DNA of 64,000 nt from Escherichia coli (GTDB taxonomy: Bacteria; Pseudomonadota; Gammaproteobacteria; Enterobacterales; Enterobacteriaceae). The stretch lies in the NCBI RefSeq assembly GCF_009931435.1, contig NZ_CP043414.1; one strand, written 5' to 3'. Every line of letters starts with the position of its first letter. Positions within the stretch are counted from its first letter, which is position 1. Shown piece by piece: positions 30,036 to 59,010 of this stretch. Made by a program: the position numbers and the translations under genes. The notes below the pieces were generated by a model that saw nothing but the letters and a program-made list of their open reading frames with translations, was not told the origin of the DNA and searched no databases.

Positions 30036-30208
30036 GGTCAGTGCGTATTTGCAGCGCGACGTTATCAAAGGTGATCATCGTCGATTTACAAAAAATACAC
30101 TTTGCCCCTAAAGGATTTCGCTCCGTCACATCGAATGCCGATGTGCGGTACTGTGAACCATGACAACATGGACAGCGGAAATGGAGATGTTGAGTAATAA
30201 CGGCAACC
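30036..30208 (-). CDS. Candidate small Cys-rich protein (CPCCHG...CIFCK), possibly YmcF; start codon unclear
   Basis: Frame of ORF 30010..30270; motif-bearing part lies in the cspG-ymcE gap; no canonical start after the cspG stop. Confidence 0.3.
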
Positions 30209-30421
30209 TTAGAGCGTAACAACGTTCGCTGCCGCGGGACCACGTTGCCCCTGCTCAATAGAAAATTCAACTTTCTGATTTTCGTTCAGCGTGCGGAATT
30301 CATTGCTCTGGATGGCGGTGAAATGGACGAAAACGTCTTTGCTGCCATCATCAGGAGTGATAAAGCCAAAACCTTTATCTGCGTTAAACCATTTTACTAA
30401 ACCAGTCATTTTATTAGACAT
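30209..30421 (-). CDS. cspG: Cold-shock protein CspG
   Basis: 70-aa [24 protein letters not shown]... with RNP motifs. Confidence 0.95.
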
Positions 30422-30706
30422 ATTTTACTTCCTTCATTTTGGGCCTTTCGGCAAACAGGGCTTTAATACAGAAACTACTTAGTGTTCAGGAGAGAGACTC
30501 AAAAGAAGGGGATAATGCCTGATAATGAGAACTACTTTAGTAAACTACTTTGTATGCTGTCTGTCTTTCAAACCGACGCAGCTATTAACGCATGATAATT
30601 GAGATTAAGCAATTTTTATTTTAGCCGTCCGGCGGTCTTAAATATCGCTGGCTTTATTTTATTAACCCCGTATAGTGCAGCGCAGTATTTTCAGTAAGGA
30701 ATTTGT

Positions 30707-30919
30707 TTGTCCCGTAAAATGACAGGAATTGTCAAAACCTTTGATCGCAAAAGCGGCAAAGGATTCATTATCCCCTCCGACGGTCGTAAAGAAGTCCAGG
30801 TCCATATTTCCGCATTCACTCCCCGCGACGCAGAAGTGCTTATACCAGGATTACGCGTGGAATTTTGCCGCGTAAATGGCCTACGCGGACCAACAGCGGC
30901 AAATGTTTATCTCTCTTAA
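30707..30919 (+). CDS. cspH: Cold-shock-like protein CspH
   Basis: 70-aa [24 protein letters not shown]... Confidence 0.9.
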
Positions 30920-30925
30920 GATGAC

Positions 30926-30953
30926 GCAGCTTGTTTAAAGCTGGCTGTTTTTA
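30926..30953 (+). terminator. Intrinsic terminator after cspH
   Basis: gcagctt-gtttaa-agctgg stem followed by ctgtttttatt. Confidence 0.55.
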
Positions 30954-31360
30954 TTAAAAAAGCTCAATAGTCAACATCGCACATTATAACAAAAGTTACT
31001 TTCACCCCGGAAAACAAATCCATTTAGCCGAATATCTCTGCACCTAATAGTTATAAATGCTACTTAACAGTCAATCATAGTACCGCTTGAAACTATATCA
31101 CCAACAATAGTTAATAGCTTTCTTAACAATTTTCTTATCTTTAATTTGTATTTTTCTAAGATTTATCTTATGCTCACAAGTCGTATTTCCAGAGGGAAAT
31201 CGTTAACAATCTTATATTTCTCTCTGCGCGCCTTTCCCACTCGCGGTATATAGTACCGACGGTATGCGGAAAGGGAGATTTCACAAGGATGTTATACTCA
31301 AAGTAGACAATCCTGATCTCAAGCGTACGTATTGTCCATGCGATGAATAAAGGAAAAGTT

Positions 31361-31666
31361 ATGAAACACAAGCTTTCTGCAATCCTTATGGCCTTCATGT
31401 TGACGACGCCAGCTGCGTTTGCTGCACCAGAAGTAGCAAACGGGACCGAGGCAACGACGGGTACTACTGGCACCACAACGACCACTACTGGTGCCACTAC
31501 GACTGCTGCTACCACCGGTGGCGTAGCTGCTGGCGCTGTCGGCACGGCGACGGTTGTCGGTGTGGCAACGGCTGTTGGTGTGGCGACTTTGGCAGTAGTT
31601 GCAGCAAATGACAATGGCGATGGCGGTTCTCATAACACCTCGACCACCACGTCCACTACGCGCTAA
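31361..31666 (+). CDS. gfcA: Thr-rich small protein GfcA (group 4 capsule operon)
   Basis: ORF 31343..31666; start at ATG 31361 (MKHKLSAILMAF...) with AGGAAAAG SD; signal peptide then T/G/A-rich low-complexity region. Confidence 0.85.
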   Translation: MKHKLSAILMAFMLTTPAAFAAPEVANGTEATTGTTGTTTTTTGATTTAATTGGVAAGAVGTATVVGVATAVGVATLAVVAANDNGDGGSHNTSTTTSTTR

Positions 31667-31772
31667 TACTGCTTTAACGCGTCAAAATTAAAGTTAAATG
31701 ATACCCGGTTGCGATATTCGTACCGGGCTTTAGAGATTTGCATTTTTTTAATTAACCTTTCAAGGATTAAAG

Positions 31773-32417
31773 GTGCGCCCTCTTATTTTATCGATTTTCG
31801 CACTATTTCTTGCGGGATGTACACACAGCCAGCAAAGTATGGTCGATACATTTCGCGCCAGCCTTTTCGATAATCAGGATATCACCGTAGCGGATCAGCA
31901 GATCCAGGCGTTGCCTTATTCCACGATGTATTTACGCCTTAATGAAGGGCAACGAATCTTTGTGGTACTGGGATATATAGAACAAGAACAAAGCAAATGG
32001 TTATCCCAGGATAACGCCATGCTGGTTACCCACAATGGACGTCTTTTAAAAACCGTCAAACTTAATAATAATCTGCTGGAAGTGACAAATTCCGGGCAGG
32101 ACCCTCTGCGTAACGCGCTGGCAATAAAAGACGGCAGCCGCTGGACGCGCGATATTCTCTGGAGTGAAGACAATCATTTTCGCTCTGCGACCCTGAGTTC
32201 CACTTTTTCCTTTGCTGGATTAGAGACGCTGAATATTGCGGGTCGCGATGTGCTGTGTAATGTCTGGCAGGAAGAGGTGACTTCCACGCTGCCAGAAAAA
32301 CAGTGGCAAAACACATTCTGGGTCGATTCGGCTACTGGCCAGGTTCGTCAAAGTCGGCAAATGTTAGGCGCAGGGGTTATTCCCGTAGAAATGACGTTTC
32401 TTAAACCCGCACCATGA
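31773..32417 (+). CDS. gfcB: Lipoprotein GfcB
   Basis: 214-aa ORF with lipobox (LFLAGCTHS). Confidence 0.85.
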   Translation: MRPLILSIFALFLAGCTHSQQSMVDTFRASLFDNQDITVADQQIQALPYSTMYLRLNEGQRIFVVLGYIEQEQSKWLSQDNAMLVTHNGRLLKTVKLNNNLLEVTNSGQDPLRNALAIKDGSRWTRDILWSEDNHFRSATLSSTFSFAGLETLNIAGRDVLCNVWQEEVTSTLPEKQWQNTFWVDSATGQVRQSRQMLGAGVIPVEMTFLKPAP

Positions 32418-33160
32418 ATAAATTACAGTCGTATTTCATTGCCAGCGTACTTTACGTAATGACACCCCATGCCTTTGCGCAAGGAACGGTGACTATTTAT
32501 CTGCCTGGCGAACAACAGCCCCTTTCCGTTGGCCCCGTGGAAAATGTTGTCCAGTTGGTGACACAACCGCAACTGCGCGATCGCCTCTGGTGGCCTGGTG
32601 CCTTGCTGACCGACTCTGCGGCGAAAGCTAAAGCGCTTAAAGACTACCAACATGTCTTGGCACAGCTTGCTTCCTGGGAAGCAGAAGCTGACGACGATGT
32701 GGTGGCAACGATTAAATCCGTGCGCCAGCAGTTACTCAATCTCAATATCACTGGTCGCTTACCGGTCAAACTGGACCCTGATTTTGTACGAGTGGATGAG
32801 AACAGCAATCCCCCGCTGGTCGGGGACTATACGCTCTATACCGTACAGCGTCCGGTGACTATTACTCTGCTGGGTGCGGTTTCTGGGGCTGGGCAATTGC
32901 CCTGGCAGGCAGGCCGTAGCGTTACCGATTATCTGCAAGATCACCCCCGCCTTGCAGGCGCGGACAAGAATAACGTTATGGTGATTACGCCTGAGGGTGA
33001 GACTGTCGTCGCCCCTGTTGCCCTGTGGAATAAAAGACATGTGGAACCACCGCCTGGCAGCCAGCTTTGGTTGGGCTTTTCTGCGCATGTACTGCCCGAA
33101 AAATATGCTGATTTAAATGACCAGATTGTGTCTGTTTTAACGCAACGTGTTCCTGACTGA
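32414..33160 (+). CDS. gfcC: Periplasmic protein GfcC
   Basis: 248-aa ORF with signal peptide, overlapping-stop coupling to gfcB. Confidence 0.85.
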
Positions 33161-35256
33161 TGAAGAAGAACTCTTATCTTTTAAGCTGCCTGGCCATTGC
33201 CGTCTCCAGTGCCTGTCATGCTGAAGTATTAACCTACCCGGATCCGCTGGGGTCGTCGCAATCAGACTTTGGCGGCACAGGATTGTTGCAGATGCCAAAT
33301 GCGCGCATCGCACCGGAAGGTGAATTCAGCGTCAACTACCGGGATAACGATCAATACCGTTTCTACTCCACGTCCGTGGCGCTGTTCCCATGGCTGGAAG
33401 GCACCATTCGTTATACGGATGTGCGCACACGCAAATATAGCCAGTGGGAAGATTTCAGCGGCGATCAGTCATACAAAGACAAATCTTTCGATTTTAAACT
33501 TCGCCTGTGGGAAGAAGGTTACTGGCTACCGCAAGTGGCGTTTGGTAAACGTGATATTGCTGGTACGGGTCTGTTTGACGGTGAATATTTGGTGGCCAGC
33601 AAGCAAGCGGGGCCATTTGATTTCACCCTCGGGATGGCATGGGGCTACGCCGGTAATGCGGGCAATATTACCAACCCGTTTTGCCGGGTGAGCGATAAAT
33701 ATTGTCATCGTGCAGAGTCTCACGATGCGGGCGATATCAGCTTTAGCGATATCTTTCGTGGCCCGGCTTCCATCTTTGGCGGCATTGAGTATCAAACGCC
33801 GTGGAATCCCCTGCGTCTGAAACTCGAATACGACGGCAACAATTACCAGAATGATTTCGCTGGCAAACTGCCTCAGGCAAGCCATTTCAACGTCGGCGCA
33901 GTTTATCGCGCTGCCAGCTGGGCAGATCTCAACCTGAGTTATGAACGCGGTAACACGTTGATGTTTGGCTTCACGTTACGGACCAATTTCAACGATCTGC
34001 GCCCTGCCCTGCGCGATACGCCAAAACCGGCATATCAACCTGCGCCGGAATCTGAAGGATTGCAGTACACCACAGTAGCGAACCAACTTACCGCGCTGAA
34101 GTACAACGCAGGTTTTGAAGCACCGGAAATTCAGCTGCGCGATAAGACGCTGTATATGTCTGGTCAACAATACAAATACCGTGATTCTCGCGAAGCGGTC
34201 GATCGTGCCAACCGGATTCTGGTGAATAACCTGCCGCAAGGCGTTGAGAAGATTAGCGTGACGCAAAAGCGCGAGCATATGGCGATGGTGACGACCGAAA
34301 CCGACGTAGCCAGCCTGCGCAAACAGCTCGCCGGTACCGCGCCTGGTAAAGCAGAGCCACTGCAACAACAACGTGTTGAAGCTGAAGATCTTTCTGCCTT
34401 TGGTCGGGGCTACCGTATTCGTGAAGATCGCTTTAGCTACTCTTTCAACCCAACACTTTCACAGTCACTGGGCGGCCCGGAAGATTTCTATATGTTCCAG
34501 TTGGGGCTGATGTCCAGCGCCCGCTACTGGTTTACCGATCACCTGCTGCTTGATGGCGGTATTTTCACCAATATTTACAACAACTACGACAAGTTTAAGT
34601 CTTCGCTGTTACCCGCGGACTCTACCCTCCCCCGCGTGCGCACGCATATCCGTGACTACGTTCGCAATGACGTTTATCTCAACAACTTGCAGGCGAACTA
34701 TTTTGCCGACTTAGGCAACGGTTTCTATGGCCAGGTGTACGGCGGTTATCTGGAAACGATGTATGCCGGTGTTGGTTCCGAGCTGCTTTATCGCCCGCTC
34801 GATGCCAGCTGGGCGCTGGGGGTGGACGTTAACTACGTGAAGCAGCGTGACTGGGACAACATGATGCGCTTCACCGATTATTCCACGCCAACAGGTTTCG
34901 TGACGGCTTACTGGAACCCGCCGACGCTCAATGGCGTACTGATGAAACTTAGCGTTGGGCAATATCTGGCAAAAGATAAAGGCGCAACGATCGACGTCGC
35001 CAAACGCTTTGACAGCGGCGTGGCAGTAGGAGTATGGGCGGCAATCAGTAACGTATCTAAAGATGACTACGGCGAAGGCGGCTTTAGTAAAGGGTTTTAT
35101 ATCTCGATTCCGTTCGACTTGATGACCATTGGACCTAACCGCAACCGCGCGGTGGTTTCGTGGACACCATTGACGCGTGACGGTGGACAAATGCTGTCAC
35201 GTAAATACCAGCTCTATCCAATGACGGCAGAGCGAGAAGTACCGGTTGGACAATAA
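33160..35256 (+). CDS. gfcD: Outer-membrane beta-barrel protein GfcD
   Basis: 698-aa ORF with signal peptide and C-terminal aromatic-rich region. Confidence 0.85.
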
Positions 35257-35301
35257 CCTGACGTAATTCATAACATTACATTGACTGATAAATATAAACC
35301 A

Positions 35302-36441
35302 ATGAAAAAGAACATTTTTAAGTTTTCGGTACTGACATTGGCTGTTCTGTCTTTGACAGCATGTACCCTTGTTCCTGGTCAGAATTTATCGACCAGTAAC
35401 AAGGATGTCATTGAACTACCTGACAATCAGTATGACCTGGACAAAATGGTCAATATCTATCCCGTCACGCCAGGATTGATTGATCAGCTGCGCGCCAAAC
35501 CGATTATGTCGCAGGCTAACCCGGAGCTGGAGCAGCAAATCGCGAACTATGAGTATCGTATCGGCATTGGGGATGTGTTGATGGTGACGGTCTGGGATCA
35601 CCCGGAACTAACCACCCCCGCAGGGCAATACCGTAGCGCCAGTGATACCGGCAACTGGGTTAACGCCGATGGTGCGATTTTCTACCCTTATATTGGTCGC
35701 CTGAAAGTGGCCGGGAAAACACTTACCCAGGTACGCAACGAGATTACAGCGCGTCTGGATTCAGTCATTGAAAGCCCGCAGGTCGATGTCAGCGTCGCGG
35801 CGTTCCGCTCGCAAAAAGCGTACGTCACCGGCGAAGTCAGCAAATCTGGTCAGCAGCCGATTACCAATATTCCTCTGACCATCATGGATGCGATTAACGC
35901 CGCGGGGGGGCTGACCGCAGATGCAGACTGGCGCAACGTGGTGCTCACCCAGAATGGCGTAAAGACCAAAGTGAACCTCTATGCGCTGATGCAGCGTGGC
36001 GACTTGCGCCAGAACAAACTGCTGCACCCGGGCGATATTTTATTTATTCCGCGTAACGATGATTTGAAAGTCTTCGTGATGGGTGAAGTGGGTAAACAGA
36101 GCACGTTGAAAATGGACCGCAGCGGTATGACCCTGGCGGAAGCACTGGGTAACGCTGAGGGTATGAATCAGGATGTCGCTGATGCGACGGGGATTTTTGT
36201 TATTCGTGCAACGCAAAACAAGCAGAATGGCAAAATCGCCAATATTTATCAGCTGAATGCGAAGGACGCATCGGCAATGATACTCGGAACGGAATTCCAG
36301 CTTGAACCTTACGACATTGTTTATGTCACTACTGCGCCGCTGGCTCGTTGGAACCGTGTGATTTCTCTACTGGTACCGACGATTTCCGGGGTGCATGACC
36401 TGACAGAGACTTCACGGTGGATTCAAACATGGCCCAACTAA
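35302..36441 (+). CDS. gfcE: Wza-like polysaccharide export outer-membrane lipoprotein GfcE
   Basis: ORF 35281..36441; start at ATG 35302 ([21 protein letters not shown], lipobox). Confidence 0.9.
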
Positions 36442-36875
36442 AATTTAACTCAATCCTGGTGGTTTGTACCGGCAACATTTGCCGTTCGCCCATTGGCGAA
36501 CGCTTGCTGCGTAAACGTCTGCCAGGCGTAAAAGTCAAATCAGCAGGTGTTCATGGTCTGGTAAAACACCCTGCAGATGCGACAGCAGCAGATGTTGCTG
36601 CTAATCATGGCGTATCTCTTGAAGGACATGCCGGACGTAAGCTCACTGCTGAGATGGCACGAAATTACGATCTGATTCTGGCAATGGAGTCAGAGCATAT
36701 TGCTCAGGTTACCGCAATCGCTCCCGAGGTCCGCGGGAAGACAATGCTGTTTGGGCAATGGCTGGAACAGAAAGAGATCCCTGATCCCTATCGTAAAAGC
36801 CAGGACGCATTTGAACATGTTTACGGCATGTTGGAGCGCGCCAGTCAGGAATGGGCGAAGCGCCTTAGCCGGTAA
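36429..36875 (+). CDS. etp: Low-molecular-weight protein-tyrosine phosphatase Etp
   Basis: ORF 36417..36875; start at [21 protein letters not shown] (CX5R P-loop). Confidence 0.9.
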
Positions 36876-36894
36876 TTTGAGTTTATAAAATACG

Positions 36895-39075
36895 ATGACA
36901 ACTAAAAATATGAATACGCCACCAGGCAGCACTCAGGAAAATGAGATCGATCTGCTTCGTCTGGTCGGCGAGTTATGGGATCACCGTAAGTTTATTATCA
37001 GCGTAACCGCGTTGTTCACGCTGATCGCTGTCGCTTACTCGCTGTTAAGCACGCCAATTTATCAGGCAGATACGCTGGTCCAGGTTGAGCAGAAACAGGG
37101 CAACGCCATTCTCAGCGGCCTGAGCGATATGATCCCTAACTCATCGCCCGAGTCAGCACCGGAGATCCAACTACTGCAATCACGCATGATTCTCGGTAAA
37201 ACCATTGCTGAACTGAATCTGCGCGACATAGTTGAGCAAAAGTATTTTCCGATTGTGGGTCGCGGCTGGGCGAGATTAACCAAAGAGAAACCAGGTGAGC
37301 TGGCGATCAGCTGGATGCATATCCCACAACTGAATGGTCAGGATCAGCAACTTACACTCACAGTTGGGGAAAACGGCCACTATACGCTGGAAGGTGAAGG
37401 GTTCACCGTCAATGGTATGGTCGGCCAGCGTCTGGAAAAAGACGGCGTTGCGCTGACTATCGCGGACATTAAGGCCAAACCAGGAACGCAGTTTGTCCTG
37501 AGCCAGCGTACCGAACTGGAAGCGATTAACGCGTTGCAGGAAACCTTTACCGTTAGCGAACGCAGTAAAGAAAGCGGGATGCTGGAACTTACCATGACCG
37601 GTGATGATCCCCAGTTGATTACCCGTATTCTGAACAGCATCGCTAACAACTATTTGCAACAGAATATCGCTCGCCAGGCGGCGCAGGATTCACAAAGCCT
37701 TGAATTCTTACAGCGCCAGTTGCCAGAAGTGCGCAGCGAGCTGGACCAGGCGGAAGAAAAACTCAACGTTTATCGCCAGCAGCGCGATTCGGTTGACCTT
37801 AACCTGGAAGCCAAAGCCGTTCTTGAGCAGATTGTTAACGTTGATAATCAACTCAATGAGCTGACCTTCCGCGAGGCCGAGATCTCCCAGCTGTATAAGA
37901 AAGATCACCCAACTTATCGTGCGCTGCTGGAAAAACGCCAGACGCTGGAGCAAGAACGCAAACGCCTGAATAAGCGGGTATCGGCAATGCCTTCCACTCA
38001 ACAGGAAGTATTGCGTTTAAGCCGTGACGTAGAAGCGGGCCGTGCGGTATATCTGCAATTACTTAACCGCCAGCAGGAGTTGAGTATTTCGAAATCCAGT
38101 GCGATTGGTAACGTGCGGATTATCGACCCGGCAGTCACTCAGCCGCAGCCAGTGAAACCGAAAAAAGCGTTGAATGTGGTGCTTGGTTTTATTCTTGGCC
38201 TGTTTATTTCGGTGGGTGCCGTGCTGGCGCGTGCGATGTTGCGTCGTGGTGTAGAAGCACCGGAACAACTGGAAGAGCACGGCATCAGCGTTTATGCCAC
38301 TATCCCGATGTCCGAGTGGCTGGATAAGCGTACCCGTCTGCGTAAGAAAAATTTATTTTCTAATCAGCAGCGCCATCGTACTAAAAATATCCCCTTCCTG
38401 GCGGTGGATAACCCGGCGGATTCTGCTGTGGAAGCCGTACGTGCGCTACGAACCAGTCTGCACTTCGCTATGATGGAGACAGAGAATAACATTCTGATGA
38501 TCACCGGTGCGACGCCAGACAGTGGTAAAACGTTCGTCAGTTCAACTCTGGCGGCGGTGATCGCCCAGTCCGATCAAAAAGTGTTATTTATTGATGCCGA
38601 CTTACGTCGTGGTTATTCGCATAACCTGTTTACCGTGAGTAATGAACATGGCTTGTCGGAATATCTGGCAGGGAAAGATGAGCTCAACAAAGTGATCCAG
38701 CATTTTGGCAAAGGAGGCTTTGATGTGATTACTCGCGGTCAGGTGCCACCTAACCCGTCTGAACTGCTGATGCGCGATCGGATGCGTCAATTACTGGAAT
38801 GGGCGAACGACCATTACGATCTGGTGATTGTCGATACGCCGCCGATGCTGGCGGTGAGCGATGCTGCGGTCGTGGGGCGCTCTGTCGGCACCAGCCTGCT
38901 GGTTGCGCGTTTTGGCTTGAACACCGCCAAAGAGGTGAGCTTGTCAATGCAGCGTCTGGAACAGGCTGGCGTTAATATTAAAGGCGCAATCCTCAATGGT
39001 GTGATTAAACGCGCCAGCACCGCTTACAGTTATGGCTATAACTATTACGGTTATAGTTACTCCGAGAAAGAGTAA
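36895..39075 (+). CDS. etk: BY-kinase (Wzc-like tyrosine autokinase) Etk
   Basis: 726-aa ORF; Walker A (GATPDSGKT) and C-terminal Tyr cluster (YSYGYNYYGYSY). Confidence 0.9.
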   Translation: MTTKNMNTPPGSTQENEIDLLRLVGELWDHRKFIISVTALFTLIAVAYSLLSTPIYQADTLVQVEQKQGNAILSGLSDMIPNSSPESAPEIQLLQSRMILGKTIAELNLRDIVEQKYFPIVGRGWARLTKEKPGELAISWMHIPQLNGQDQQLTLTVGENGHYTLEGEGFTVNGMVGQRLEKDGVALTIADIKAKPGTQFVLSQRTELEAINALQETFTVSERSKESGMLELTMTGDDPQLITRILNSIANNYLQQNIARQAAQDSQSLEFLQRQLPEVRSELDQAEEKLNVYRQQRDSVDLNLEAKAVLEQIVNVDNQLNELTFREAEISQLYKKDHPTYRALLEKRQTLEQERKRLNKRVSAMPSTQQEVLRLSRDVEAGRAVYLQLLNRQQELSISKSSAIGNVRIIDPAVTQPQPVKPKKALNVVLGFILGLFISVGAVLARAMLRRGVEAPEQLEEHGISVYATIPMSEWLDKRTRLRKKNLFSNQQRHRTKNIPFLAVDNPADSAVEAVRALRTSLHFAMMETENNILMITGATPDSGKTFVSSTLAAVIAQSDQKVLFIDADLRRGYSHNLFTVSNEHGLSEYLAGKDELNKVIQHFGKGGFDVITRGQVPPNPSELLMRDRMRQLLEWANDHYDLVIVDTPPMLAVSDAAVVGRSVGTSLLVARFGLNTAKEVSLSMQRLEQAGVNIKGAILNGVIKRASTAYSYGYNYYGYSYSEKE

Positions 39076-39195: not shown

Positions 39196-40494
39196 TTACA
39201 AACTGCACGCAGGTATGCGTGCTTCATTCACGATTTGCGTAAAACCGGCCAACGAACACATGCCCTGCACGTTTCGCTCTTCACATCCTGCCAGGGTCAG
39301 TTTCACCTCTCCGGGCGGCGTATTTAATGATAGCGGCGTTTTATCACGCATCTGCTGTAAAGTCTGGAAGACCAGCGAAACCTGAATCCAATGGCTGTTA
39401 TCACTTAGCCTACGCCAGCGTTCAAACACCAGTTCACCCCCTGGCGGTGTGTTATCCGGCTGACCGGGAAGCGTCCAGTTGAGCTCCAGTGCGCCGCCGA
39501 GATTTGCCAGATTAGTATCGTGTCCGGCGATAAACAGCACTGAAGTGGGTAATGTCACACCATACACCTGCTTTTGCTGAGGATGTGGCGTCAACGCCGT
39601 CGTGATCAAATCTAATAACGGGGTGGCGCGACTGCGGGCAACCTCTGGCGTGCGTTGTAGCAAATAAAACTGCGCGTTATGCAGGCTTAGCAAGGTGTTC
39701 CACTGGTGTGAATCGGTGATCCTTCCCCACCCCGGCTCCGGCATTCCCTGTGCTTGTTGCAGGAGAAATATCTCCGTCAGCATTGACGCCAGGCTTACCG
39801 CACCGGTTAATGAGACATTGTCGGCGCTCACCTTGAGTTCCGATGGTAATACCTGCGTTAATGAACAGCTTTCGTCCTGTTTCTCACGGTTAAGGCACAA
39901 GTTTGATTGTGGGAAATTAAGCACCTGTTCCAGTTCGCGAAACGCCGTTTGCCGATGCCCGGTAAAGTCAGCAATTGACCCTCCTGCCCTGCTGAGGATC
40001 GCGTCAGTCACGTTCGCGTTATCCAGTTGGCAAATGCCAGTTTTTAGAGGATTAAATAACGGATCGGGACTGGACGTATCTGCCTGGGTATGTACGGTTA
40101 TTGCGCAGTCAGGTGCCAGCCCGGCGGCGAAGGCTTCGCCTGTTTTACGGGTACGCTCGTCGACATCAGCAATAATCGCGACCTGACCAGGCTGCGGGCA
40201 GCCCTTTTTCGCCAGCAATCCGTCAGCCACCAGACGCTGGCGTTGGTAATGCCCGAGATAAGCGATTAGCTCACCACCGCGCGGTGTCAGCCACCCCAGT
40301 TTTACCGGCCATGTTGGCCATGCGTCTGGGGTGACATCCTGCATCAGTTGCGTGGCCTTGGTTGGGGCACGCACACCATGACGACTGACAATCACCACAC
40401 TTTCCAGCTTCAGCTCCGGCTCACTCTGAGCGAATGCAGATTGCGGGGTGAACGGAATCAGAAGAGATAAGAATGGGATCAAGATCGCTTTCAT
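39196..40494 (-). CDS. appA: Periplasmic phosphoanhydride phosphatase / phytase AppA
   Basis: ORF 39196..40524; start at MKAILIPFLSLLIPFTPQSAFA; RHGVRAP histidine acid phosphatase motif. Confidence 0.9.
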   Translation of the reverse strand: MKAILIPFLSLLIPFTPQSAFAQSEPELKLESVVIVSRHGVRAPTKATQLMQDVTPDAWPTWPVKLGWLTPRGGELIAYLGHYQRQRLVADGLLAKKGCPQPGQVAIIADVDERTRKTGEAFAAGLAPDCAITVHTQADTSSPDPLFNPLKTGICQLDNANVTDAILSRAGGSIADFTGHRQTAFRELEQVLNFPQSNLCLNREKQDESCSLTQVLPSELKVSADNVSLTGAVSLASMLTEIFLLQQAQGMPEPGWGRITDSHQWNTLLSLHNAQFYLLQRTPEVARSRATPLLDLITTALTPHPQQKQVYGVTLPTSVLFIAGHDTNLANLGGALELNWTLPGQPDNTPPGGELVFERWRRLSDNSHWIQVSLVFQTLQQMRDKTPLSLNTPPGEVKLTLAGCEERNVQGMCSLAGFTQIVNEARIPACSL

Positions 40495-49397: not shown

Positions 49398-49485
49398 GGA
49401 AGTGTGGCCGAGCGGTTGAAGGCACCGGTCTTGAAAACCGGCGACCCGAAAGGGTTCCAGAGTTCGAATCTCTGCGCTTCCGCCA
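49398..49485 (+). tRNA. serT: tRNA-Ser (anticodon UGA)
   Basis: 88-nt sequence GGAAGTGTGGCCGAGCGG...TTCGAATCTCTGCGCTTCCGCCA with long variable arm and cuUGAaa anticodon loop. Confidence 0.95.
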
Positions 49486-49493
49486 AATAATCA

Positions 49494-49528
49494 AGGGGTT
49501 ACCAAATGGTAGCCCCTTTGCTTTTTGG
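49494..49528 (+). terminator. Hairpin plus T-tract immediately after serT (probable tRNA terminator)
   Basis: ggggttacc-aaa-tggtagcccc stem followed by tttgctttttgg. Confidence 0.55.
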
Positions 49529-49748
49529 GCTCTTGGTATAAACTTGGTATACCAATTGGTATATTTTCTGCCAAAAAATTCCTAAAATCCCCTCCAGCAC
49601 AAACAATCACTTGCTCATTCATACTTTATCAAGAAAATATCCTTGCAAGTTATGTTGTTTCTTTCTGCGTCCCGACAGGGTGTCATGGTTCCCCACTTCT
49701 CTCGGGATGGACACTTAACGGACGAGAAATTTTCAGGTGTCATTCAGA

Positions 49749-49787
49749 CGCGCTTCGGCCCCGGATTGGCGAAGCGCGCTTTTTTTC
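49749..49787 (+). terminator. Intrinsic terminator in the serT-prophage junction
   Basis: cgcgcttcg...cgaagcgcg stem followed by cttttttt. Confidence 0.6.
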
Positions 49788-49976
49788 TCAGATTATTTCG
49801 TTTTGCCTGAGTGTTGAATAACGCCACTACAGTTATATAAGCTGGAAATCATTCAATACTCGCACTATCGAAAGTTCACCAGCCAACCGCAGCACATTCC
49901 TGCATACGACGTGTCTGCGGCTTTTTTCATCTCTGCCTGTAATTACTGATTAACGTAAAATCCTCTTCCCCGATAT

Positions 49977-50507
49977 TTACTGCTCTGGCTTTTGTGGCCA
50001 TTCCGGGTTCGCTGAATCCACCCGGCTGAGCAGGACGCTGTAACGCTCCCATGCCGACAGCCGGGTTCGCTCTTCTTCCGTGGCCATATTCAGCCTTACT
50101 GACCGCTCCAGAAGCCGGATGATGGCATCTGCTTCACTGAGCAGCGTGGCCTTGCGTTGCTCTGTCTGTCTGTTGACTTCCTCTGGCGAATACTCACGTT
50201 TCCTCACCTGACCGTCCAGATACATCCACTGCCCCGAATCGTCTGCACGGCGGTTCGCCGTTATATCTGCCACCTCAACAACACTTAATCCCGCCGGATT
50301 AAGCGTTGAGGCATCCCGGGTGATGGCAACGATAATATTGTTATCATCGTAAGCCATCTTTATTGTGTCTTTCTGAAAGTTACTCACTTCTTCATACCAG
50401 TTTCTTCCGTCCTCTGAAAACAACCAGATAACATCAAAATTTTTTGTCAGTTGATACTGAGCAACGGTTTTGGGATTACCTGCTGTAATATTTTTTAAGT
50501 GCTGCAT
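49977..50507 (-). CDS. tfa: Tail fibre assembly protein Tfa
   Basis: 176-aa ORF immediately downstream of the tail fibre gene. Confidence 0.8.
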
Positions 50508-50510
50508 TAC

Positions 50511-53096
50511 TTATACCTGCGATACGTTAAACCATGTGCCGTTTATGTATTTTTGCACCGGCCGGTAAACCGCTGAGTTATCGCCATCAGCATCCCCGAC
50601 AAGACAAAGCCCCGTAATGACATGGCCGGACTTCTCATACGTCACGCCTTTTTGCATGCCCTGAACAACACGCGTACCCAGCCGGATATCCCTGACATAG
50701 CGGATATCAAAATTACTGTAATCGGAAGGATTAACGCGCCCGGACACATTCAGCCCTTTACTGACCTGAATGCTGCCGTTTGTAAAGCGCATTACACGTG
50801 CGTTACCGGCGTAAACATCAAGATTACCGTCGCCGTTTTGTTTCAGGCCTGTGTCGCCCCTCCCCAGCGCAAGTGAATGACCGCCCAGCGTATTCTGTGC
50901 ACCGATACCCACCGCGCCATCCAGGGTCCCGCCCGTTGTCGTGAACAGACGCTCCCAGTCCGCCTCAAAGCCATAGCCATCACGGGCGGAGCGGTAAAAT
51001 ATCCCGCCATTCCGGTAATTCACCCGAAACTGGACCGCAGGGCAGCTGCCTTCCCCTGTATTAAAATGAAGAATTAAGGATGATGCGCCACCATCCTGTG
51101 CACAATAAGCGCCACTGTCCAGGTTCCAGGCGACGGCATCTGTATCGGCGAGCGTTTCCCCGGTTTTTCCCAGCGCAAAGGCCGGTGGCTTGTTTTTCGT
51201 GTTGTAGTCACGACGCCAGCCAGGGGAATAACCATCACCATGATTAATATAGGTAAACTGCGCATTCGCCGTTCCACTTCCGCTGGATGTTGTCGGTGTG
51301 GTTATGCGGATCGTCATCGCTGACTTTATCCCCATCACCTCAATGACAGCGCCGGCGAGATGAATATTTCCGCAGCCCGTATCCGTGATGATTTTATTAT
51401 TACCGTAAGACCAGGAGCCCTTGCACATCCAGTATGGGTGGTTAAATGCGCCCTGAGACTCCAGCCACCCGATAAACTGTGCGGTCGTCCAGTCTCCTGT
51501 CGTTGTGCTTACGGCCCCACCGAAAGCACGGCAGGCACCAATATTTTTCGTAAAGGTGTCTTTGTCGGGGACATCCGCACCGTTCTTATCTTTCTGCAGT
51601 CGTTTCTCAGCATTCTCACAGGCGGCTTTTACTGCCTTTGGTGTTGCCGCCAGTGACTCGGAAGTGCTGTTGGTTGCACTGCTGAGCTGGACTATCCCCT
51701 TTTTCGTCGTGCTCGCATCCTCAAGCGCCACGGCAGACGCAATATCCTCCGCCCGTTTTGCCGCAGTCTCAGCGCGCGTTGCCGCGGATTCTGCCGTGCT
51801 TTTGCTCTGTGCTGCCGCTGTCGCACTGCCAGCTGCCTCTGTCGCCTTCGCGGATGCCGTCGTGGCACTGCCCTGCGCCTCTGACGCCAGCCTTGCCGCC
51901 TCATCTTTTGAAGCTGACGCCGATGATGCTGATGACGCCGCCGAACTGGCGGACGATACGGCTGCCGTTTTTGAGGATTCTGCGCTGGTTTCCGACGCTT
52001 TCGCGTTCGTCTCGGATGTCCTCGCAGCGGAAGCAGACCTCGCTGCTGCAGTGGCCTGTTCAGTGGCTTCGCCAGCCTTCGTTGTGGCTGCTGAAGCGGA
52101 CGATGCGGCGCTTTCTGCCGATTTTCCGGCGGCGGTGGCACTGGCTGAGGCCTCCTCCGCTTTAACTGACGCCTCACGGGACGATGATGCAGCGGCAGTT
52201 TCTGAGCCTGCTGCTGCGGAGGCACTCTGTTCCGCTGCCGTTTCAGAAGACCTGGCGTTCGTCTCAGACGTCTTTGCCGCCTTCGCGGAATTTCCTGCCG
52301 CCGTTGCCGAGGAAGCTGCGCTACCGGCGCTCGAGGCTGCGCTCGTTTCTGATGATTTTGCCGCCTCTTTTGAGGCCGCCGCATCCCTGGCTGACGTGGC
52401 AGCTTCTGACGCTTTCGTGGTCGCGGTGGATGCAGACGTGGCGGCTGATTGTTGTGACGCTGCCGCATTCGTTTCTGACGTTTTCGCGGCACCGGCACTG
52501 GTGGCCGCCGCGCTTTTTGAGGACTCTGCAGCGGCAGCACTTTTTGATGCCTCAGCGGCCTTTGCTGAGGCTGTTTCTGCGCCGGAAGACGCTTCCTGAG
52601 CCGACGTCGCAGCCTGTCCGGCGGACGTGCTGGCGGCGCGTGCTGAGTCCGCAGCATCAGTCGCATGGGTTGCCGCCTCACGGGCTGATGTACCGGCATC
52701 GCTGGCGGATTTTTTCGCGGCTGCCGTGTTCTGTGCCACTGCGGACGCGTTACGCGCCACCTCTTCCACCATCAGTTCAAAACGGCGCAGTGCCTCCGGA
52801 CGGGCATCATCCTCCGTCATGGCACCGAGAAAATCATTCAGCGTACCGGGTTGGGAATCTTCATACACGGTGATGGTCCCGGCATGTGAAGGCGGAAAAC
52901 CGTCAACCAGCAGGATGACACCGTACTGGCCGTACTCAACGTCCATACTGTAACGCCCGGCTTCATCCGGATTTTCTGAGGCCACCGTGTTCACCACCAC
53001 CGTGGTACTGTTACGTTTTGCTTTCAGCTGAATGGTGCAGTTCTGTACCGGTTTACCTGCACCGTCTTTCAGCACGCCTGAAATCTTTACTGCCAT
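50511..53096 (-). CDS. stf: Side tail fibre protein Stf with long Ala/Ser/Thr-rich repeat region
   Basis: 861-aa ORF; conserved N-terminus (MAVKISGVLKDGAGKPV...), central about 350 aa low-complexity repeats, distinct C-terminal domain. Confidence 0.85.
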   Translation of the reverse strand: MAVKISGVLKDGAGKPVQNCTIQLKAKRNSTTVVVNTVASENPDEAGRYSMDVEYGQYGVILLVDGFPPSHAGTITVYEDSQPGTLNDFLGAMTEDDARPEALRRFELMVEEVARNASAVAQNTAAAKKSASDAGTSAREAATHATDAADSARAASTSAGQAATSAQEASSGAETASAKAAEASKSAAAAESSKSAAATSAGAAKTSETNAAASQQSAATSASTATTKASEAATSARDAAASKEAAKSSETSAASSAGSAASSATAAGNSAKAAKTSETNARSSETAAEQSASAAAGSETAAASSSREASVKAEEASASATAAGKSAESAASSASAATTKAGEATEQATAAARSASAARTSETNAKASETSAESSKTAAVSSASSAASSASSASASKDEAARLASEAQGSATTASAKATEAAGSATAAAQSKSTAESAATRAETAAKRAEDIASAVALEDASTTKKGIVQLSSATNSTSESLAATPKAVKAACENAEKRLQKDKNGADVPDKDTFTKNIGACRAFGGAVSTTTGDWTTAQFIGWLESQGAFNHPYWMCKGSWSYGNNKIITDTGCGNIHLAGAVIEVMGIKSAMTIRITTPTTSSGSGTANAQFTYINHGDGYSPGWRRDYNTKNKPPAFALGKTGETLADTDAVAWNLDSGAYCAQDGGASSLILHFNTGEGSCPAVQFRVNYRNGGIFYRSARDGYGFEADWERLFTTTGGTLDGAVGIGAQNTLGGHSLALGRGDTGLKQNGDGNLDVYAGNARVMRFTNGSIQVSKGLNVSGRVNPSDYSNFDIRYVRDIRLGTRVVQGMQKGVTYEKSGHVITGLCLVGDADGDNSAVYRPVQKYINGTWFNVSQV

Positions 53097-53154
53097 ATTC
53101 GTTCCACAAATAAAAAAGGTGCCATTTCTGGCACCCGGTCTGGTTTCTGAACAT

Positions 53155-56100
53155 TCAACTGATACTGATACCGGCTGTGGATTTCTTCATCACCACAACC
53201 AGCAAATCGCTGATGCTTGCCGTGGGATACCAGTCATTCACCAGCCACGCTGATACCGAAAACTCCAGCGTCATGTGACCGCGACCCGCTGGCATATCAA
53301 TCACACCTGTATAAATCAGCGTATTATCCAGCGCGGTACGGTTATAAATTTCAGCACCGTTTTTCCGCACTATCAGACGGCATGATGAATAAATGTCATT
53401 ATGCTCTCTCTCATGTCTGGCACCGCTGAATGCCACCGCCGGAATGACAATTTGCCGGTCAAAAGGCTGATCGTCATAAACCCTGACGGTGATGGTCCCT
53501 GATGGCCACCGTTCCGGTGCACGGGAGTCCCGGGGGAAAGGTTTACCCACTGTTTTAACGAGATCGCCTTCAATCTGGTTGGCGGACAATTTTCCCAGAA
53601 CCCGACAGTTCTCGTTAATCGTGACGTTGTTGAGCGTCCCGGAGTTCGCATTCACGTTACCGCTGATATCGGCATTTTTAGCAGTCAGCTTTCCGTCCGG
53701 TGTCAGGGAAAAGGCCGGGGGATTGCCGCCGCTGGTAATGGTGGGGGCCGTCAGGCGCTTCAGGAACACGTCGTTCATGAATATCTGATCGCCCTGACCA
53801 ACAAACATCGGTTTTGTGTTGCCATTCGCAGGATTAACCATCGCAATCCTGTCCGCCGCCAGCAGCACCTGACTCTGCATGCCGTCAGGGGTGTTCTCAA
53901 TACCGGCACCAATACCCGCGATATAAAGGCGTCCGTCCTGCATCTGCTGCAGCTTCACAGCCCACATGCTGTTCAGGTTATTATTTGTATCAACCTGAAC
54001 CTTCTGTATCTGCTGAATTGCCGCACTCTGGTCTTCCAGTTTCTTATTGACGGTCTGTGTGATTTCATTGCTGACATCCGTAATGGACGTCCTGATTTCA
54101 GCCAGATCAGGCGCCAGCTGACCGTTATCAATCTGCGTCCACAGCTCCTGAGCCAGATGGGTTTTTCCTATCTCGCCTTTGAAAAAATCCAGATAGCCGG
54201 ATGCATCATCACTCGGCTGACCAACAGCCTCCACGAATGCCGATTTGCCAACGGTGTTCACACTGCGGATATAAAAGTAATAATCATGGCCCGGTTTGAT
54301 ATTGATACTGGCGGCTATCCAGTACAGCGCCGTGCCAAGATAGCGTGCTGTGGTTTCAACCTGCCTGATATCCGCAATCCGCTTTTCCGAGAACCAGAAC
54401 TCAAACTGTACCGTCGGATCATAAACCGCAAGATGCGGCGTGGCGGTTATCTGAAAATAGCCCGGCGTCAGCTCAATCCGCGACGGCGCTGCCGGTGCGG
54501 CAATCCGGAACGATACCGACGCCGGATCGCCCTGCTGCCCCCACGCATTTACTGCCCGGACTGTCAGCCTGTAGTTCCCCAGCGCCAGTTGTGTGAAGCG
54601 GTAAGTGGTTTCCGTCGTCCGGGCCGTGCTGACCAGCCACTCACTGCCGTCATCCGCTGTTACGGTCAGACGGAGCAGGAAGCTCACGCCCTTCACCACC
54701 TTCGGCGTGTCCCAGCGCGCCAGCACCTGATATTCCCCGCTGTCTGCGGTGACTTCGGCAGTCAGGTGCTGCACCGCTGGCGGCGTGACACCATTCACCG
54801 TGCCGCTCTGGTCGCCGTCAAAGTGCGCCCCGTTATCCACGATGGCTTCTTTTTCCGGTACATGCTGCACGGCGGTGATGGCATACGTGCCGTCGTCGTT
54901 CTCACGGATACTCACGCAGCGGAACAGGCGCTGGCGCAGCGTCGGCAGCTTCAGCCCCCACACGCTGTATTCAGCAACGCCGTCAGGAACACGGCTCACT
55001 TTCACCTTCACGCCGTCGGTGACGGACTGAACCTCCACGCTGACCGGATTGCCACTTCCGTCAACCAGGCTTATCAGCGTGGTACCGGAGGATGGCAGCG
55101 TGATTTCACGGTCGAGCGTCAGCGTCCGGGTCTGGCTGTTTACCGCCAGCACGCGCCCGCCGGTGCTGATACCGGCATAGTCATCATCACAGATTTCAAT
55201 GACATCGCCCGGCACATGGCGAAGCCCTTCTGCGCCCACGCTGAAGTCCACGGTCTGCGTTTCCAGCAGTTCTGTTTTAATCAGCCATAGCCCGGCGCGA
55301 TGTGCCTGCCCCCGGCTGGTACAGCCAAAGGCATCCATCTTCGTGACGTTACGACCGTAACGGGCAATGGCCTGCGTGTCCTCCACAAGCTCTGTCGCCG
55401 TCTCCCAGCCGTTATTCGGGTCAATCCAGTTCACCTCAACGGCATTATGGCGGTCCTTCAGGGCGCTGAAGCTGTAGCGGAACGGCGCGCCATCATCCGG
55501 CATCACCACATTACTGCGGTTATAGGTCCACACCTTATCTGATGGTCGGTCCTGCACGAACGTCAGCGTCTGCCCGTTCCATACCGGCATACAGCGCATC
55601 GCCGAGCAGAAATCACTGAGCACATCCCACGCCTTGCGCTGTGTTGTCAGGTAAGCGTTACAGGTGATGCGCGGCTCCGTGCCACCAAAGCCATCCGGCA
55701 CCGACTGGTCGCAATTCTGGCCGATGACATACAGCGCCCATTTGTCCACATCCGCCGCACCGAGACGCTTCCCCATGCCGTAGCGCGGATGGGTCAGCAT
55801 ATCCCACAGACACCAGGCCATGTTGTTGCTGTATGCCGGTTTAAACGTCCCGTCCCAGATACCGCTGTATTGCCGCGTCTGCGGGTTATAGTTCGACGGC
55901 ACCTGCAGAATGCGCCCGCGAAGATGATAATTACGGCTCACCTGCTGGCTGCCGAACTGCTCCGAATCCACCTGCACGCCGACCAGTGCCGTGTTCGGGT
56001 AGCACTGTTTCACATCGATGATTTCGGTGTATGACGACCAGAGCGTTTTGTTCTGCAACTGGTCTGTGGTGCTGTCCGGTGTCATCCTGCGCATCCGGAT

Positions 56101-56634
56101 ATTGAACGGGCGCGGCGGCAGGTTATCCACCACCACCGAGGCCAGATACTGCGAGGTGGTTTTGCCCTTAATGGTGATGTCTTTTTCCGTCACCCAGCCA
56201 CCGTTACGCTGTATCTGAACCAGCAGGCGGACTTCCGACGGATTCCTGTCTCCCTTTGAGGTGGTTTCCACCAGTGCCTGTACACCGAAGGTAAAGCGCA
56301 GACGGTCGATGTTTGCCGACGTGATGGTCCGGGTGATCGGCGTGTCATATTTCACTTCCGTACCCAGCACCGTCTCGGAGCCGGAGGATTCAAATCCCTC
56401 CGGTGGTGACTGCTCCTGCTCACCTGCCCGGAACACCACCGTGACGCCGGAGATGTTGGTATTCCCCTCAGTGTCCAGCACCGGCGTACTGTTCAGCAGC
56501 ACACTTTTTAATCCCTCCACCGGACCTTCAACCGGCCCTTCACTGATGGCATCGATCACACTCAGCAACTGCGTGGACTTCAGGTTGTCCTTCGCTTCGC
56601 GCGGGGTATGCCCCTTACTGCTGCCTTTACCCAT
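53155..56634 (-). CDS. J: Tail tip / host specificity protein J
   Basis: 1159-aa ORF starting [21 protein letters not shown], recognisable lambda J-like sequence. Confidence 0.9.
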
Positions 56635-56694
56635 TCCTCACGCTCCATAAATGACAAAACCGCCCGCAGGCGGTTTCACATAAAACGTTTTTCA

Positions 56695-57336
56695 TCAGCG
56701 ACCAATCACCACAACCTGACCACCATCACCTTCATCTGCTGTGCTGATCTCCTGAGAAACCACACGTGATCCCACGCGCATTTCACCGTACAGAACGGGC
56801 AGAACATTGCCCTGGGCAACCATATTATCCAGTGAAGAAAAATAGGTGTTCTGTTTGCCGTTATCCGTTGTCTGTGTGCGGGGGGTTTTGGGTTTAGGGG
56901 CCAGCATCTGTGCAACACCGCCAAGCGTCATACTGGCACCGAGAGAAAACAGCAGATTACTCGCCATAATTCCTACCCCCGGCATCCATATAGCAACCGC
57001 CATAACAGCCGCCCCCAGCACAGCCTGAAACACACCGCCACTTTTGGCTCCTGCCAGACGCGGCACGATGTGGATCACAGCACCATTTGCCAGCGGTTCA
57101 TTAAGACGGGCTGATAATTCGTTTTCACCTGTATCACGCCCGGCAATCCGTATCTGATACCAGCCATCGCTCAGTTTCTGACGAAACGCCGGGAGCTGTG
57201 TGGCCAGTGCCCGGATGGCTTCAGCCCCCGTTTTCACACGAAGGTCGATGCGGCGACCAAATCGTTGTAAATCCCCGTAAAGGCAGATGCGCGCCATGCC
57301 CGGTGACGCCAGAGGGAGTGTGTGCGTCGCTGCCAT
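56695..57336 (-). CDS. I: Tail assembly protein I
   Basis: 213-aa ORF, lambda I-like; 5' end overlaps K, exact start uncertain. Confidence 0.8.
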   Translation of the reverse strand: MAATHTLPLASPGMARICLYGDLQRFGRRIDLRVKTGAEAIRALATQLPAFRQKLSDGWYQIRIAGRDTGENELSARLNEPLANGAVIHIVPRLAGAKSGGVFQAVLGAAVMAVAIWMPGVGIMASNLLFSLGASMTLGGVAQMLAPKPKTPRTQTTDNGKQNTYFSSLDNMVAQGNVLPVLYGEMRVGSRVVSQEISTADEGDGGQVVVIGR

Positions 57337-57977
57337 TTGTCGGTGTACCTCTCTCGTTTGCTCAGTTGTTCAGGAATATGGTGCAGCAGCTCGCCGTCGC
57401 CGCAGTAAATTGCGGCGTGATTCGGCACCGATGAACCAAAACAGCACAGCAGCACATCGCCCGGCTGCGCCGCTGACAACGGCACCTGATACAGCCCCGT
57501 CGCCTCCAGATTATCCAGATAGAGATTCTGGCCGTTACGCCACCAGTCATCCTCACGATGAAAGTCCGGCATCTCAATCCCCGCCAGATGATAAGCATCC
57601 CGGAACAGTGTGTAACAGTCCGTCACACCGTGCTCAAAGCGCCGCCCGGTGAGATGCGGCACACAGCGGAACTTATGAATCGTCCCCCGGCAGACCAGCC
57701 ACCACGGCAAATCACTCTGCACCTGCAGCCGCCGGTCGGCCTCACTCAGCCAGGGCAGACCACCGGGGTGGCTGTGGACCAGCGCCACAATCTCACCCTG
57801 CATTTCTGCCTGCAGCCAGTCTTCCGGCGACATACGGAAATACGCCTCCGGCTCACCGGAGATATTCACGCAGGGGAAATATCTTTCCCCCTCCGGCGTG
57901 CTTACCACGAAGCCGCACGACTCCGCTGGCGCACATCGCCGGGCGTGCGCCAGAATCGCTGATTCTGTCTGTGTCAT
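57234..57977 (-). CDS. K: Tail tip assembly protein K (JAMM/MPN plus NlpC/P60 peptidase motifs)
   Basis: HSHPGGLPWLSEAD (HxHx7SxxD) and downstream Cys/His (DCYTLF...HAAIY) motifs. Confidence 0.8.
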   Translation of the reverse strand: MTQTESAILAHARRCAPAESCGFVVSTPEGERYFPCVNISGEPEAYFRMSPEDWLQAEMQGEIVALVHSHPGGLPWLSEADRRLQVQSDLPWWLVCRGTIHKFRCVPHLTGRRFEHGVTDCYTLFRDAYHLAGIEMPDFHREDDWWRNGQNLYLDNLEATGLYQVPLSAAQPGDVLLCCFGSSVPNHAAIYCGDGELLHHIPEQLSKRERYTDKWQRRTHSLWRHRAWRASAFTGIYNDLVAASTFV

Positions 57978-57982
57978 GGGAT

Positions 57983-58681
57983 TTACTGCGAAAGTTTGTT
58001 AATGGAAAGGAAGCCGCCAAAGTTGCCGACGTTATTGCGGAACTTACAACCGCTCAGGCATTTGCTGCATTTATCCTTCGTGATATCGGACGTTGGCTGG
58101 TCATATTCATCCGCGACAGCCGGACCGCTATAACCGCACTCGTCACCGCGATAGGTCCAGGTGCAGGTGTTGGCCAGCATGATACGTCCCGGAAAAACAG
58201 CGCCATCCGTTTCCGTCGGCGTGGACAGTACAAAGGAGGCACTCACCGCGCTCAGTTCGCTGCACTGCTCAATGCGCCAGCGGCTGATCACCTCCTGCTC
58301 CGGATCGGCATAACTGTTTCCGTTGACGAAGTTCACCGCATCCAGAAAACGGGCGTAAACCTTACGCCGGACCACCGTTCCGCCGACCAGACTCTGCATA
58401 TCTTCCGCCATCCCGGTGACCATACCGTACAGGTTAGAAACCGTCAGCGTGGGGCGCGTACTGGTGCCTTTGCCATTCAGTTCAAAACCGCTCCCCTGAA
58501 TGGGATACGGCTGATACTGTCGCCCCTGCCAGGTGACCGGCTCACCTTTTTCGTTCTGCTCATTACAGAAAAAATAACGTTCTCCACCGACCTCTGTCAG
58601 GTCGATTTCCCAGAGCACCACGCTGGCCGACTGCTCCGCACGGGTGCATTCATTCAGTGTTTCCTGCCGGATATCCTGCAT
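57983..58681 (-). CDS. L: Minor tail protein L
   Basis: 232-aa ORF, lambda L-like, C-terminal Cys cluster. Confidence 0.85.
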   Translation of the reverse strand: MQDIRQETLNECTRAEQSASVVLWEIDLTEVGGERYFFCNEQNEKGEPVTWQGRQYQPYPIQGSGFELNGKGTSTRPTLTVSNLYGMVTGMAEDMQSLVGGTVVRRKVYARFLDAVNFVNGNSYADPEQEVISRWRIEQCSELSAVSASFVLSTPTETDGAVFPGRIMLANTCTWTYRGDECGYSGPAVADEYDQPTSDITKDKCSKCLSGCKFRNNVGNFGGFLSINKLSQ

Positions 58682-59010
58682 CAGTTCACCACCTGTTCAA
58701 ACTCTGCGCTGAACTCAACACGCAGCATACTGACCCGCGACGACCATTTTGCGCAGGTCACCTTTATCTGCCGCCACTCATAAGGCGGCGTCCACAGAAA
58801 GGATTTCCAGCCCCCGTGCTCTTCCAGAAACGACTCCAGTACCGTGGCCTCCTCACGGGGGACAGAAAGCGTCACGCTGTACGTTTTCAGGTTGGCATTC
58901 AGCCCGGCAGGCGCTCGCTGGGAATAGCCATCACCAAAGCGCACCTTTCTTACAGAAGGGACCGAAGCCACATCCATACCGGGTTTCACTTTCCAGCGGA
59001 AGGTCTTCAT
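58681..59010 (-). CDS. M: Minor tail protein M
   Basis: 109-aa ORF, position and size as lambda M. Confidence 0.85.
   Translation of the reverse strand: MKTFRWKVKPGMDVASVPSVRKVRFGDGYSQRAPAGLNANLKTYSVTLSVPREEATVLESFLEEHGGWKSFLWTPPYEWRQIKVTCAKWSSRVSMLRVEFSAEFEQVVN

Follow-up and report, generated by a model that had tools for sequence, protein, structure and literature searches.

The 441-bp spacer that separates cspH from gfcA in the 64,000-nucleotide stretch of Escherichia coli DNA analysed here (the window) is best explained as the regulatory region of gfcABCDE-etp-etk, the group 4 capsule operon, in its ancestral wild-type form, a reading to which we attach a probability of about 0.9. An uninterrupted gfc spacer is already known and is ordinary, and the IS1 element carried at this point by K-12 is recognised as an oddity of the laboratory lineage. 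The spacer and its immediate surroundings comprise the following features.

30707–30919, plus strand: cspH, encoding a 70-residue cold-shock-like protein of the CspA family, 100% identical to K-12 CspH (Pfam CSD, 3.5e-23)
30920–31360, strandless: the cspH-gfcA spacer, 441 bp, uninterrupted
30927–30953, plus strand: terminator-like stem-loop and T-run just past the cspH stop codon, a pattern match from a consensus scan
31328–31336, strandless: empty IS1D target site CGTATTGTC, a single unbroken copy 25–33 bp upstream of the gfcA ATG

The first-pass annotation had described an AT-rich spacer of 441 bp with neither a transposase reading frame nor IS inverted repeats, and both its coordinates and the absence of these elements were borne out. 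The G+C content of the spacer is 35.8%, compared with 52.9% for the window as a whole. A BLASTN comparison of K-12 IS1D with the entire 64-kb window returned chance matches only (12–26 bp), TBLASTN of InsA and InsB against the spacer gave a single chance match of 16 residues, and a repeat search detected no inverted repeat pairs in 30880–31400. The only two open reading frames of at least 40 residues that touch the spacer lie on the minus strand and run antisense through the low-complexity gfcA sequence, and an Rfam scan of the spacer yielded no matches at E ≤ 1. The stem-loop beyond cspH has a stem of 6 bp, a loop of 5 nt and the tail GCTGTTTTTA. Chance is not at issue in accounting for the missing element, because the locus is IS-free by default.

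Alignment with MG1655 upheld the claim that K-12 carries an IS1 between cspH and gfcA. The element is IS1D, 768 bp in length, annotated at 1,049,778–1,050,545 between gfcA and cspH and bordered by a 9-bp target duplication, CGTATTGTC. When IS1D and one copy of the 9-mer are removed, the K-12 spacer is 441 bp long and aligns to the window without gaps. The window holds no IS1 DNA and has CGTATTGTC once, so its allele is not the interrupted K-12 type. PMC2516531 likewise places IS1 at gfc in K-12 and not in pathogenic strains.

The distribution of the unbroken site was surveyed with a 100-bp probe centred on the insertion point and compared with 5,426 complete E. coli genomes. The site was present in 3,610 of these and unbroken in 3,194 of the 3,610 (88%). 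A probe for the K-12 flank-IS1 junction was covered in at least 401 genomes and, among the matches listed, nearly all were K-12 or B laboratory derivatives, with a few natural isolates. In about one-third of genomes, including ST131 and ABU 83972, the operon is wholly missing and cspH adjoins appA. Beyond the species, a scan of representative-genome contigs with the GfcB protein identified five loci, and both E. albertii and Escherichia sp. MOD1-EC7003 display the identical unbroken arrangement with the 9-mer CGTATTGTC present once. An exact 22-nt leader pattern found no matches in the representative-genome contigs, presumably because the GTDB representative of E. coli is a B2 strain lacking the operon. 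Judged from these genome comparisons, the unbroken spacer is the ancestral state and the species norm; the uninterrupted state does not distinguish this strain, since it is the norm in 88% of the genomes that bear the site.

Independent IS1 insertions were also observed near gfcA in the natural isolates STEC346, RM9513 and 789, at positions equivalent to about 31380–31750 of the window. They lie in the gfcA 5′ end, the gfcA 3′ end and the gfcA-gfcB spacer, and in all three the transposase gene is opposite to the gfc strand. Counting the K-12/B leader insertion, four or more IS1 sites are found within gfcA or beside it. Such repeated insertion could reflect an AT-rich hotspot or selection against the capsule.

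Downstream of the spacer the seven genes of the operon follow in the order gfcA-B-C-D-E-etp-etk, all on the plus strand (31361–39075), with overlaps or with gaps of no more than 106 bp. The operon sits between cspH and appA (39199–40494, minus strand) and is colinear with that of K-12. Its components are listed below.

31350–31354, plus strand: Shine-Dalgarno sequence AAGGA, read from the sequence, 6 nt before the gfcA ATG
31361–31666, plus strand: gfcA, 101 residues, threonine-rich, with a signal peptide; 96.0% identical to K-12 GfcA
31773–32417, plus strand: gfcB, lipoprotein; 99.1% identical to K-12 (Pfam YjbF PF11102, 4e-69)
32414–33160, plus strand: gfcC; 98.8% identical to K-12 (Pfam GfcC N- and C-terminal domains PF20616 and PF06251)
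33160–35256, plus strand: gfcD, outer-membrane protein; 99.4% identical to K-12 (Pfam YjbH PF06082, 2.9e-270)
35302–36441, plus strand: gfcE, Wza-like outer-membrane polysaccharide exporter; 100% identical to K-12 (Poly_export, SLBB and Wza_C)
36429–36875, plus strand: etp, low-molecular-weight phosphotyrosine phosphatase; 100% identical to K-12 (Pfam LMWPc)
36895–39075, plus strand: etk, BY-type tyrosine kinase and Wzc paralogue; 99.9% identical to K-12

Consistent with the first-pass description of an intact gfcABCDE-etp-etk operon, all seven proteins align end to end and gap-free with their K-12 counterparts at 96.0–100% identity. The gfcA gene differs from that of K-12 by 4 amino-acid changes and 13 synonymous codon changes. 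Its product, described at first pass as having a low-complexity core rich in Thr, Gly and Ala, does contain 27.7% Thr, with Thr, Gly, Ala and Val together making up 71% of its residues; this threonine richness has already been reported (PMC8592465). GfcA matched no model at cut-off in Pfam and NCBIfam. GfcB to Etk match their expected Pfam families far above the curated cut-offs, those of Etk being the Wzz, WZC_N, GNVR and P-loop domains. A G7 homopolymer is present inside gfcE (35904–35910), whereas the corresponding tract of the RefSeq genome of strain 2020CK-00188, with an otherwise identical gfcE, is G8 and the gene is annotated there as frameshifted. Either the difference is an assembly error, or the tract is prone to slippage and could switch the exporter off.

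The spacer falls into two parts, 30920–31120 diverging fast and 31121–31360 being conserved. The 200 bp proximal to cspH show 84–85% identity to EPEC, O157 and K-12 and 60% to E. albertii, and the promoter and leader (31121–31360) retain 90–97% identity even to E. albertii. Within the latter part the last 93 nt are 99–100% identical in EPEC and O157, and the K-12 sequence is identical up to the IS1D junction. Overall, the spacer is 89.3% identical to that of K-12 minus IS1D, with 47 of 441 positions differing and no indels, compared with 98–99% identity in the flanks. The 1.1-kb cspH-gfcA segment was matched at 99% or more by only 11 of 5,410 genomes. Both the low identity to K-12 and the small number of close genomes are explained by the concentration of differences in the cspH-proximal part.

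The following elements were located in the conserved part of the spacer.

31146–31174, plus strand: candidate core promoter (–35 TTGTAT, 17-bp spacer, –10 TATGCT)
31183–31360, plus strand: gfc 5′ leader, 178 nt, from the mapped K-12 transcription start site (TSS)
31231–31274, plus strand: imperfect hairpin with outer arms CCTTTCC/GGAAAGG, conserved, a predicted fold
31245–31250, minus strand: –10 box of an antisense promoter, TATACT in K-12 and TATACC here
31290–31298, plus strand: extended –10-like element TGTTATACT inside the leader, the best single –10 in the spacer (9.1 bits)

The start of transcription was taken from SMRT-Cappable-seq of MG1655 (PMC6131387, Supplementary Data 2; coordinates of NC_000913.3) and transferred to the window through the gap-free alignment. 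That study lists an operon b0987|b0986 (gfcA|gfcB) whose TSS is the reverse-strand position 1,050,699; this corresponds to the G at 31183 of the window and lies in an identical sequence context. Upstream of this base, the TTGTAT-17-TATGCT pair was the top two-hexamer candidate in a position-weight-matrix scan, albeit a weak one (8 of 12 positions); its score of 7.8 is no better than shuffled spacers, the best pairs of which averaged 9.6, and a separate consensus scan called no plus-strand promoter in the spacer. The distance of 8 nt from the –10 box to the TSS is longish. In E. albertii the –35 hexamer is kept and the –10 hexamer differs at one base (TATCCT). The –35 and –10 hexamers are identical in EPEC and the window, the two promoters differing at one base between the hexamers and one further upstream.

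Because the K-12 TSS maps to 31183, the leader is 178 nt long and IS1D falls at +146 to +154. By this TSS, IS1D in K-12 splits the conserved leader and not the core promoter; a recent IS1 study describes it as lying within the gfcA promoter region (PMC12428005). The same K-12 data bear on the claim that IS1 silences the K-12 operon, in which the presence of the element stands and the silencing is overstated. Full-length K-12 reads that begin at the native start run through IS1D and extend over gfcA and gfcB (PMC6131387), and PMC2516531 concludes that etk is expressed in K-12 despite the IS1. The word ‘silences’ is consequently too strong, given a TSS upstream of IS1D with read-through and an expressed etk.

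The leader is 91.6% identical to that of E. albertii. Together with the first 20 nt of gfcA it has a predicted folding energy of –51.9 kcal/mol (z = –2.47) and folds better than shuffled sequences, and the segment 31215–31290, which contains the hairpin, folds at –21.8 kcal/mol (z = –1.64). Across 10 sequences the outer arms of the hairpin are invariant, one inner pair occurs as AU, UA or GC, and most other changes are G-U compatible; covariation is nevertheless uninformative here, because the leader barely varies. The allele states of the hairpin in the window are held in common with E. albertii and Escherichia sp. MOD1-EC7003, and not with K-12, EPEC or O157.

An antisense start lies within this structure. 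The available part of the K-12 Cappable-seq listing, which holds plus-strand sites, places a TSS at 1,049,867 (U00096.2), and this position corresponds to 31238 on the minus strand of the window, in the hairpin loop and exactly 6 nt downstream of TATACT. The –10 box reads TATACT in K-12 and EPEC, TATACC in the window and TATACA in O157, and the TATACC allele would be expected to weaken the antisense promoter. A second K-12 antisense TSS corresponds to 31142. We consider it quite unlikely that the leader is an undescribed cis-element that tunes capsule expression after initiation or by sense-antisense interference. The idea arises because the leader is near-invariant in E. coli and retains 92% identity in E. 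albertii, has a predicted structure and contains an internal antisense promoter with a –10 box that varies by allele. Were it so, hairpin alleles could underlie differences between strains, such as those between EPEC and EHEC. At similarly low odds, the repeated IS1 insertions might owe something to selection for a capsule-off state, for example escape from phages that depend on the capsule, in addition to an AT-rich hotspot.

In the model that we favour, the ancestral wild-type regulatory region, cspH transcription would end at the terminator-like hairpin at 30927–30953, and the weak sigma-70-type promoter at 31146–31174 would fire at 31183. The conserved and probably structured 178-nt leader would then run to the Shine-Dalgarno sequence at 31350–31354, the seven genes would be co-transcribed, and their products would export O-antigen as a capsule if the strain makes O-antigen. 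In K-12, with IS1D splitting the leader 25–33 nt before the start codon, polarity probably lowers downstream expression and does not abolish transcription. In the window no insertion comes between promoter and genes, and expression would accordingly be governed by nothing more than the usual regulation of a weak, AT-rich promoter.

It had also been proposed that the operon may be expressible in this strain; the intact structure agrees with the proposal, but an uninterrupted spacer does not serve as evidence of expression, EHEC being the counterexample. In EHEC O157, which has an unbroken spacer, the gfcA transcript is about 30-fold below that of EPEC and no capsule is visible in N-minimal medium, whereas in EPEC gfcA is highly transcribed and the capsule is seen. 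This makes it a real possibility, although at less than even odds, that the operon of the window strain is structurally intact and phenotypically silent, either because its promoter is repressed or an activator is missing or because the strain makes no O-antigen, any of which would be compatible with an ancestral regulatory region. Such silence would also be in keeping with the differences in capsule gene expression between EPEC subpopulations and the response of these genes to high salt, with the failure of two scans to find a strong promoter in a spacer of such low G+C content, and with the position of the O-antigen genes, which supply the capsule polymer and lie outside the window. Set against this, all seven genes are intact, the –35 and –10 boxes are identical to those of the high expresser EPEC, and clear purifying selection acts on the promoter and leader, which argues for use. 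In O157:H7, disruption of gfc-etk abolishes infection by 11 phages, and the operon clearly works there under other conditions.

The position of the promoter can itself be disputed. The extended –10 element TGTTATACT at 31290–31298 does not vary in any of the aligned sequences, E. albertii included, and would, if it were the working promoter, perhaps with sigma-S, give a leader of about 55 nt and make 31183 a minor start. PMC5493296 reports an in vitro SELEX peak for the sigma-S holoenzyme in the K-12 insB-cspH spacer (U00096.2 1,049,830, intensity 167.2), which maps to about 31275 of the window and is the highest of the first 98 of 218 listed peaks. As an account of that peak the antisense promoter does at least as well, the peak lying about 37 bp upstream of the antisense TSS; no TSS is reported downstream of 31298, and 15% of shuffled spacers hold an element that scores as high as TGTTATACT. 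The peak and TGTTATACT had been considered as an orphaned gfc promoter, which was dropped as the main reading because of the antisense TSS 6 nt past TATACT near the peak and the sense TSS at 31183, and TGTTATACT is now regarded as an unlikely working promoter. More improbable by far is a secondary origin of the unbroken spacer by precise excision of IS1 from a K-12-like ancestor, which has nothing positive in its favour and was considered only since IS1 is recurrent at the locus. The 9-bp target occurs once and without a footprint, every lineage sampled, as well as E. albertii, has the unbroken arrangement, the K-12-type junction is mostly confined, among the genomes listed, to K-12 and B laboratory strains, and the spacer allele differs from that of K-12 at more than forty positions.

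Several further features of the window were recorded. Its last 14.5 kb (49526–64000) consist of a lambda-like prophage tail-gene module, encoding the major tail protein, tape measure, minor tail proteins, J, side tail fibre and fibre assembly protein, and this module is 95–97% identical to phages mEp332, PhiR42_1 and Chlobot. It starts about 40 bp downstream of serT (tRNA-Ser, 49398–49485), and neither K-12 nor the closest RefSeq genome, NZ_ABACVG020000001.1, has it. In that RefSeq genome torT is not annotated and only 32 bp lie between torR and torS, about 1 kb less than in K-12; torT is intact here (24593–25621, 342 residues), which points to a related strain and not to that record as the origin of the window. 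Strain 2020CK-00188, which matches at 100% over 1.1 kb, has neither torT nor the prophage beside serT and carries G8 in gfcE, and it is likewise not the source. On the minus strand at 22–861, efeU is an intact 279-residue reading frame with a full-length FTR1 iron-permease match; the K-12 efeU is an annotated pseudogene, a second K-12-specific lesion missing from the window. The putP-efeU intergenic region (981–1067) measures about 87 bp, compared with about 410 bp in K-12 (1,080,817–1,081,228); apart from IS1D and the prophage, colinearity with K-12 is interrupted nowhere else. Rfam scans identified a cspA-type thermoregulator 5′ UTR upstream of cspG (30155–30577, minus strand, 156.9 bits) and the ES036 (CssrF) sRNA (13468–13510, plus strand), the latter at 38.5 bits against a gathering score of 37.6.

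Overall, the window strain carries the standard operon for group 4 capsule export, which is potentially functional. In strains producing O-antigen, this operon bears on phage adsorption, defensin resistance and colonisation. The analysis has little significance beyond correct annotation, for which K-12 is better worded as attenuated than as strictly silenced, with IS1D assigned to the 5′ leader instead of the core promoter.

Three known systems provide points of comparison. The gfc locus of K-12 MG1655 (b0981–b0989) lies in about 50 kb that are colinear with the window, K-12 coordinates 1,031,582–1,082,206 being in reverse orientation, and differs by the presence there of IS1D and its 9-bp duplication, both of which are absent from the window. 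The yjbEFGH exopolysaccharide operon of E. coli is a paralogue of gfcABCD, the YjbF, YjbG and YjbH Pfam families being common to GfcB, GfcC and GfcD (PMC8592465); it is, however, a separate locus with a different upstream region and without genes of the Wza, Wzb or Wzc type. The third is gfcABCDE-etp-etk (ymcDCBA-yccZ-etp-etk) of EPEC O127:H6 E2348/69 and EHEC O157:H7, which have the same seven genes in the same order and in the same position between cspH and appA, together with the same unbroken 441-bp spacer; identity is 96.8% in the promoter zone and 98.9–100% over the final 93 nt of the leader. These two pathogens differ from the window strain in the cspH-proximal 200 bp, where identity falls to 84–85%, and in carrying another allele in the inner part of the leader hairpin.
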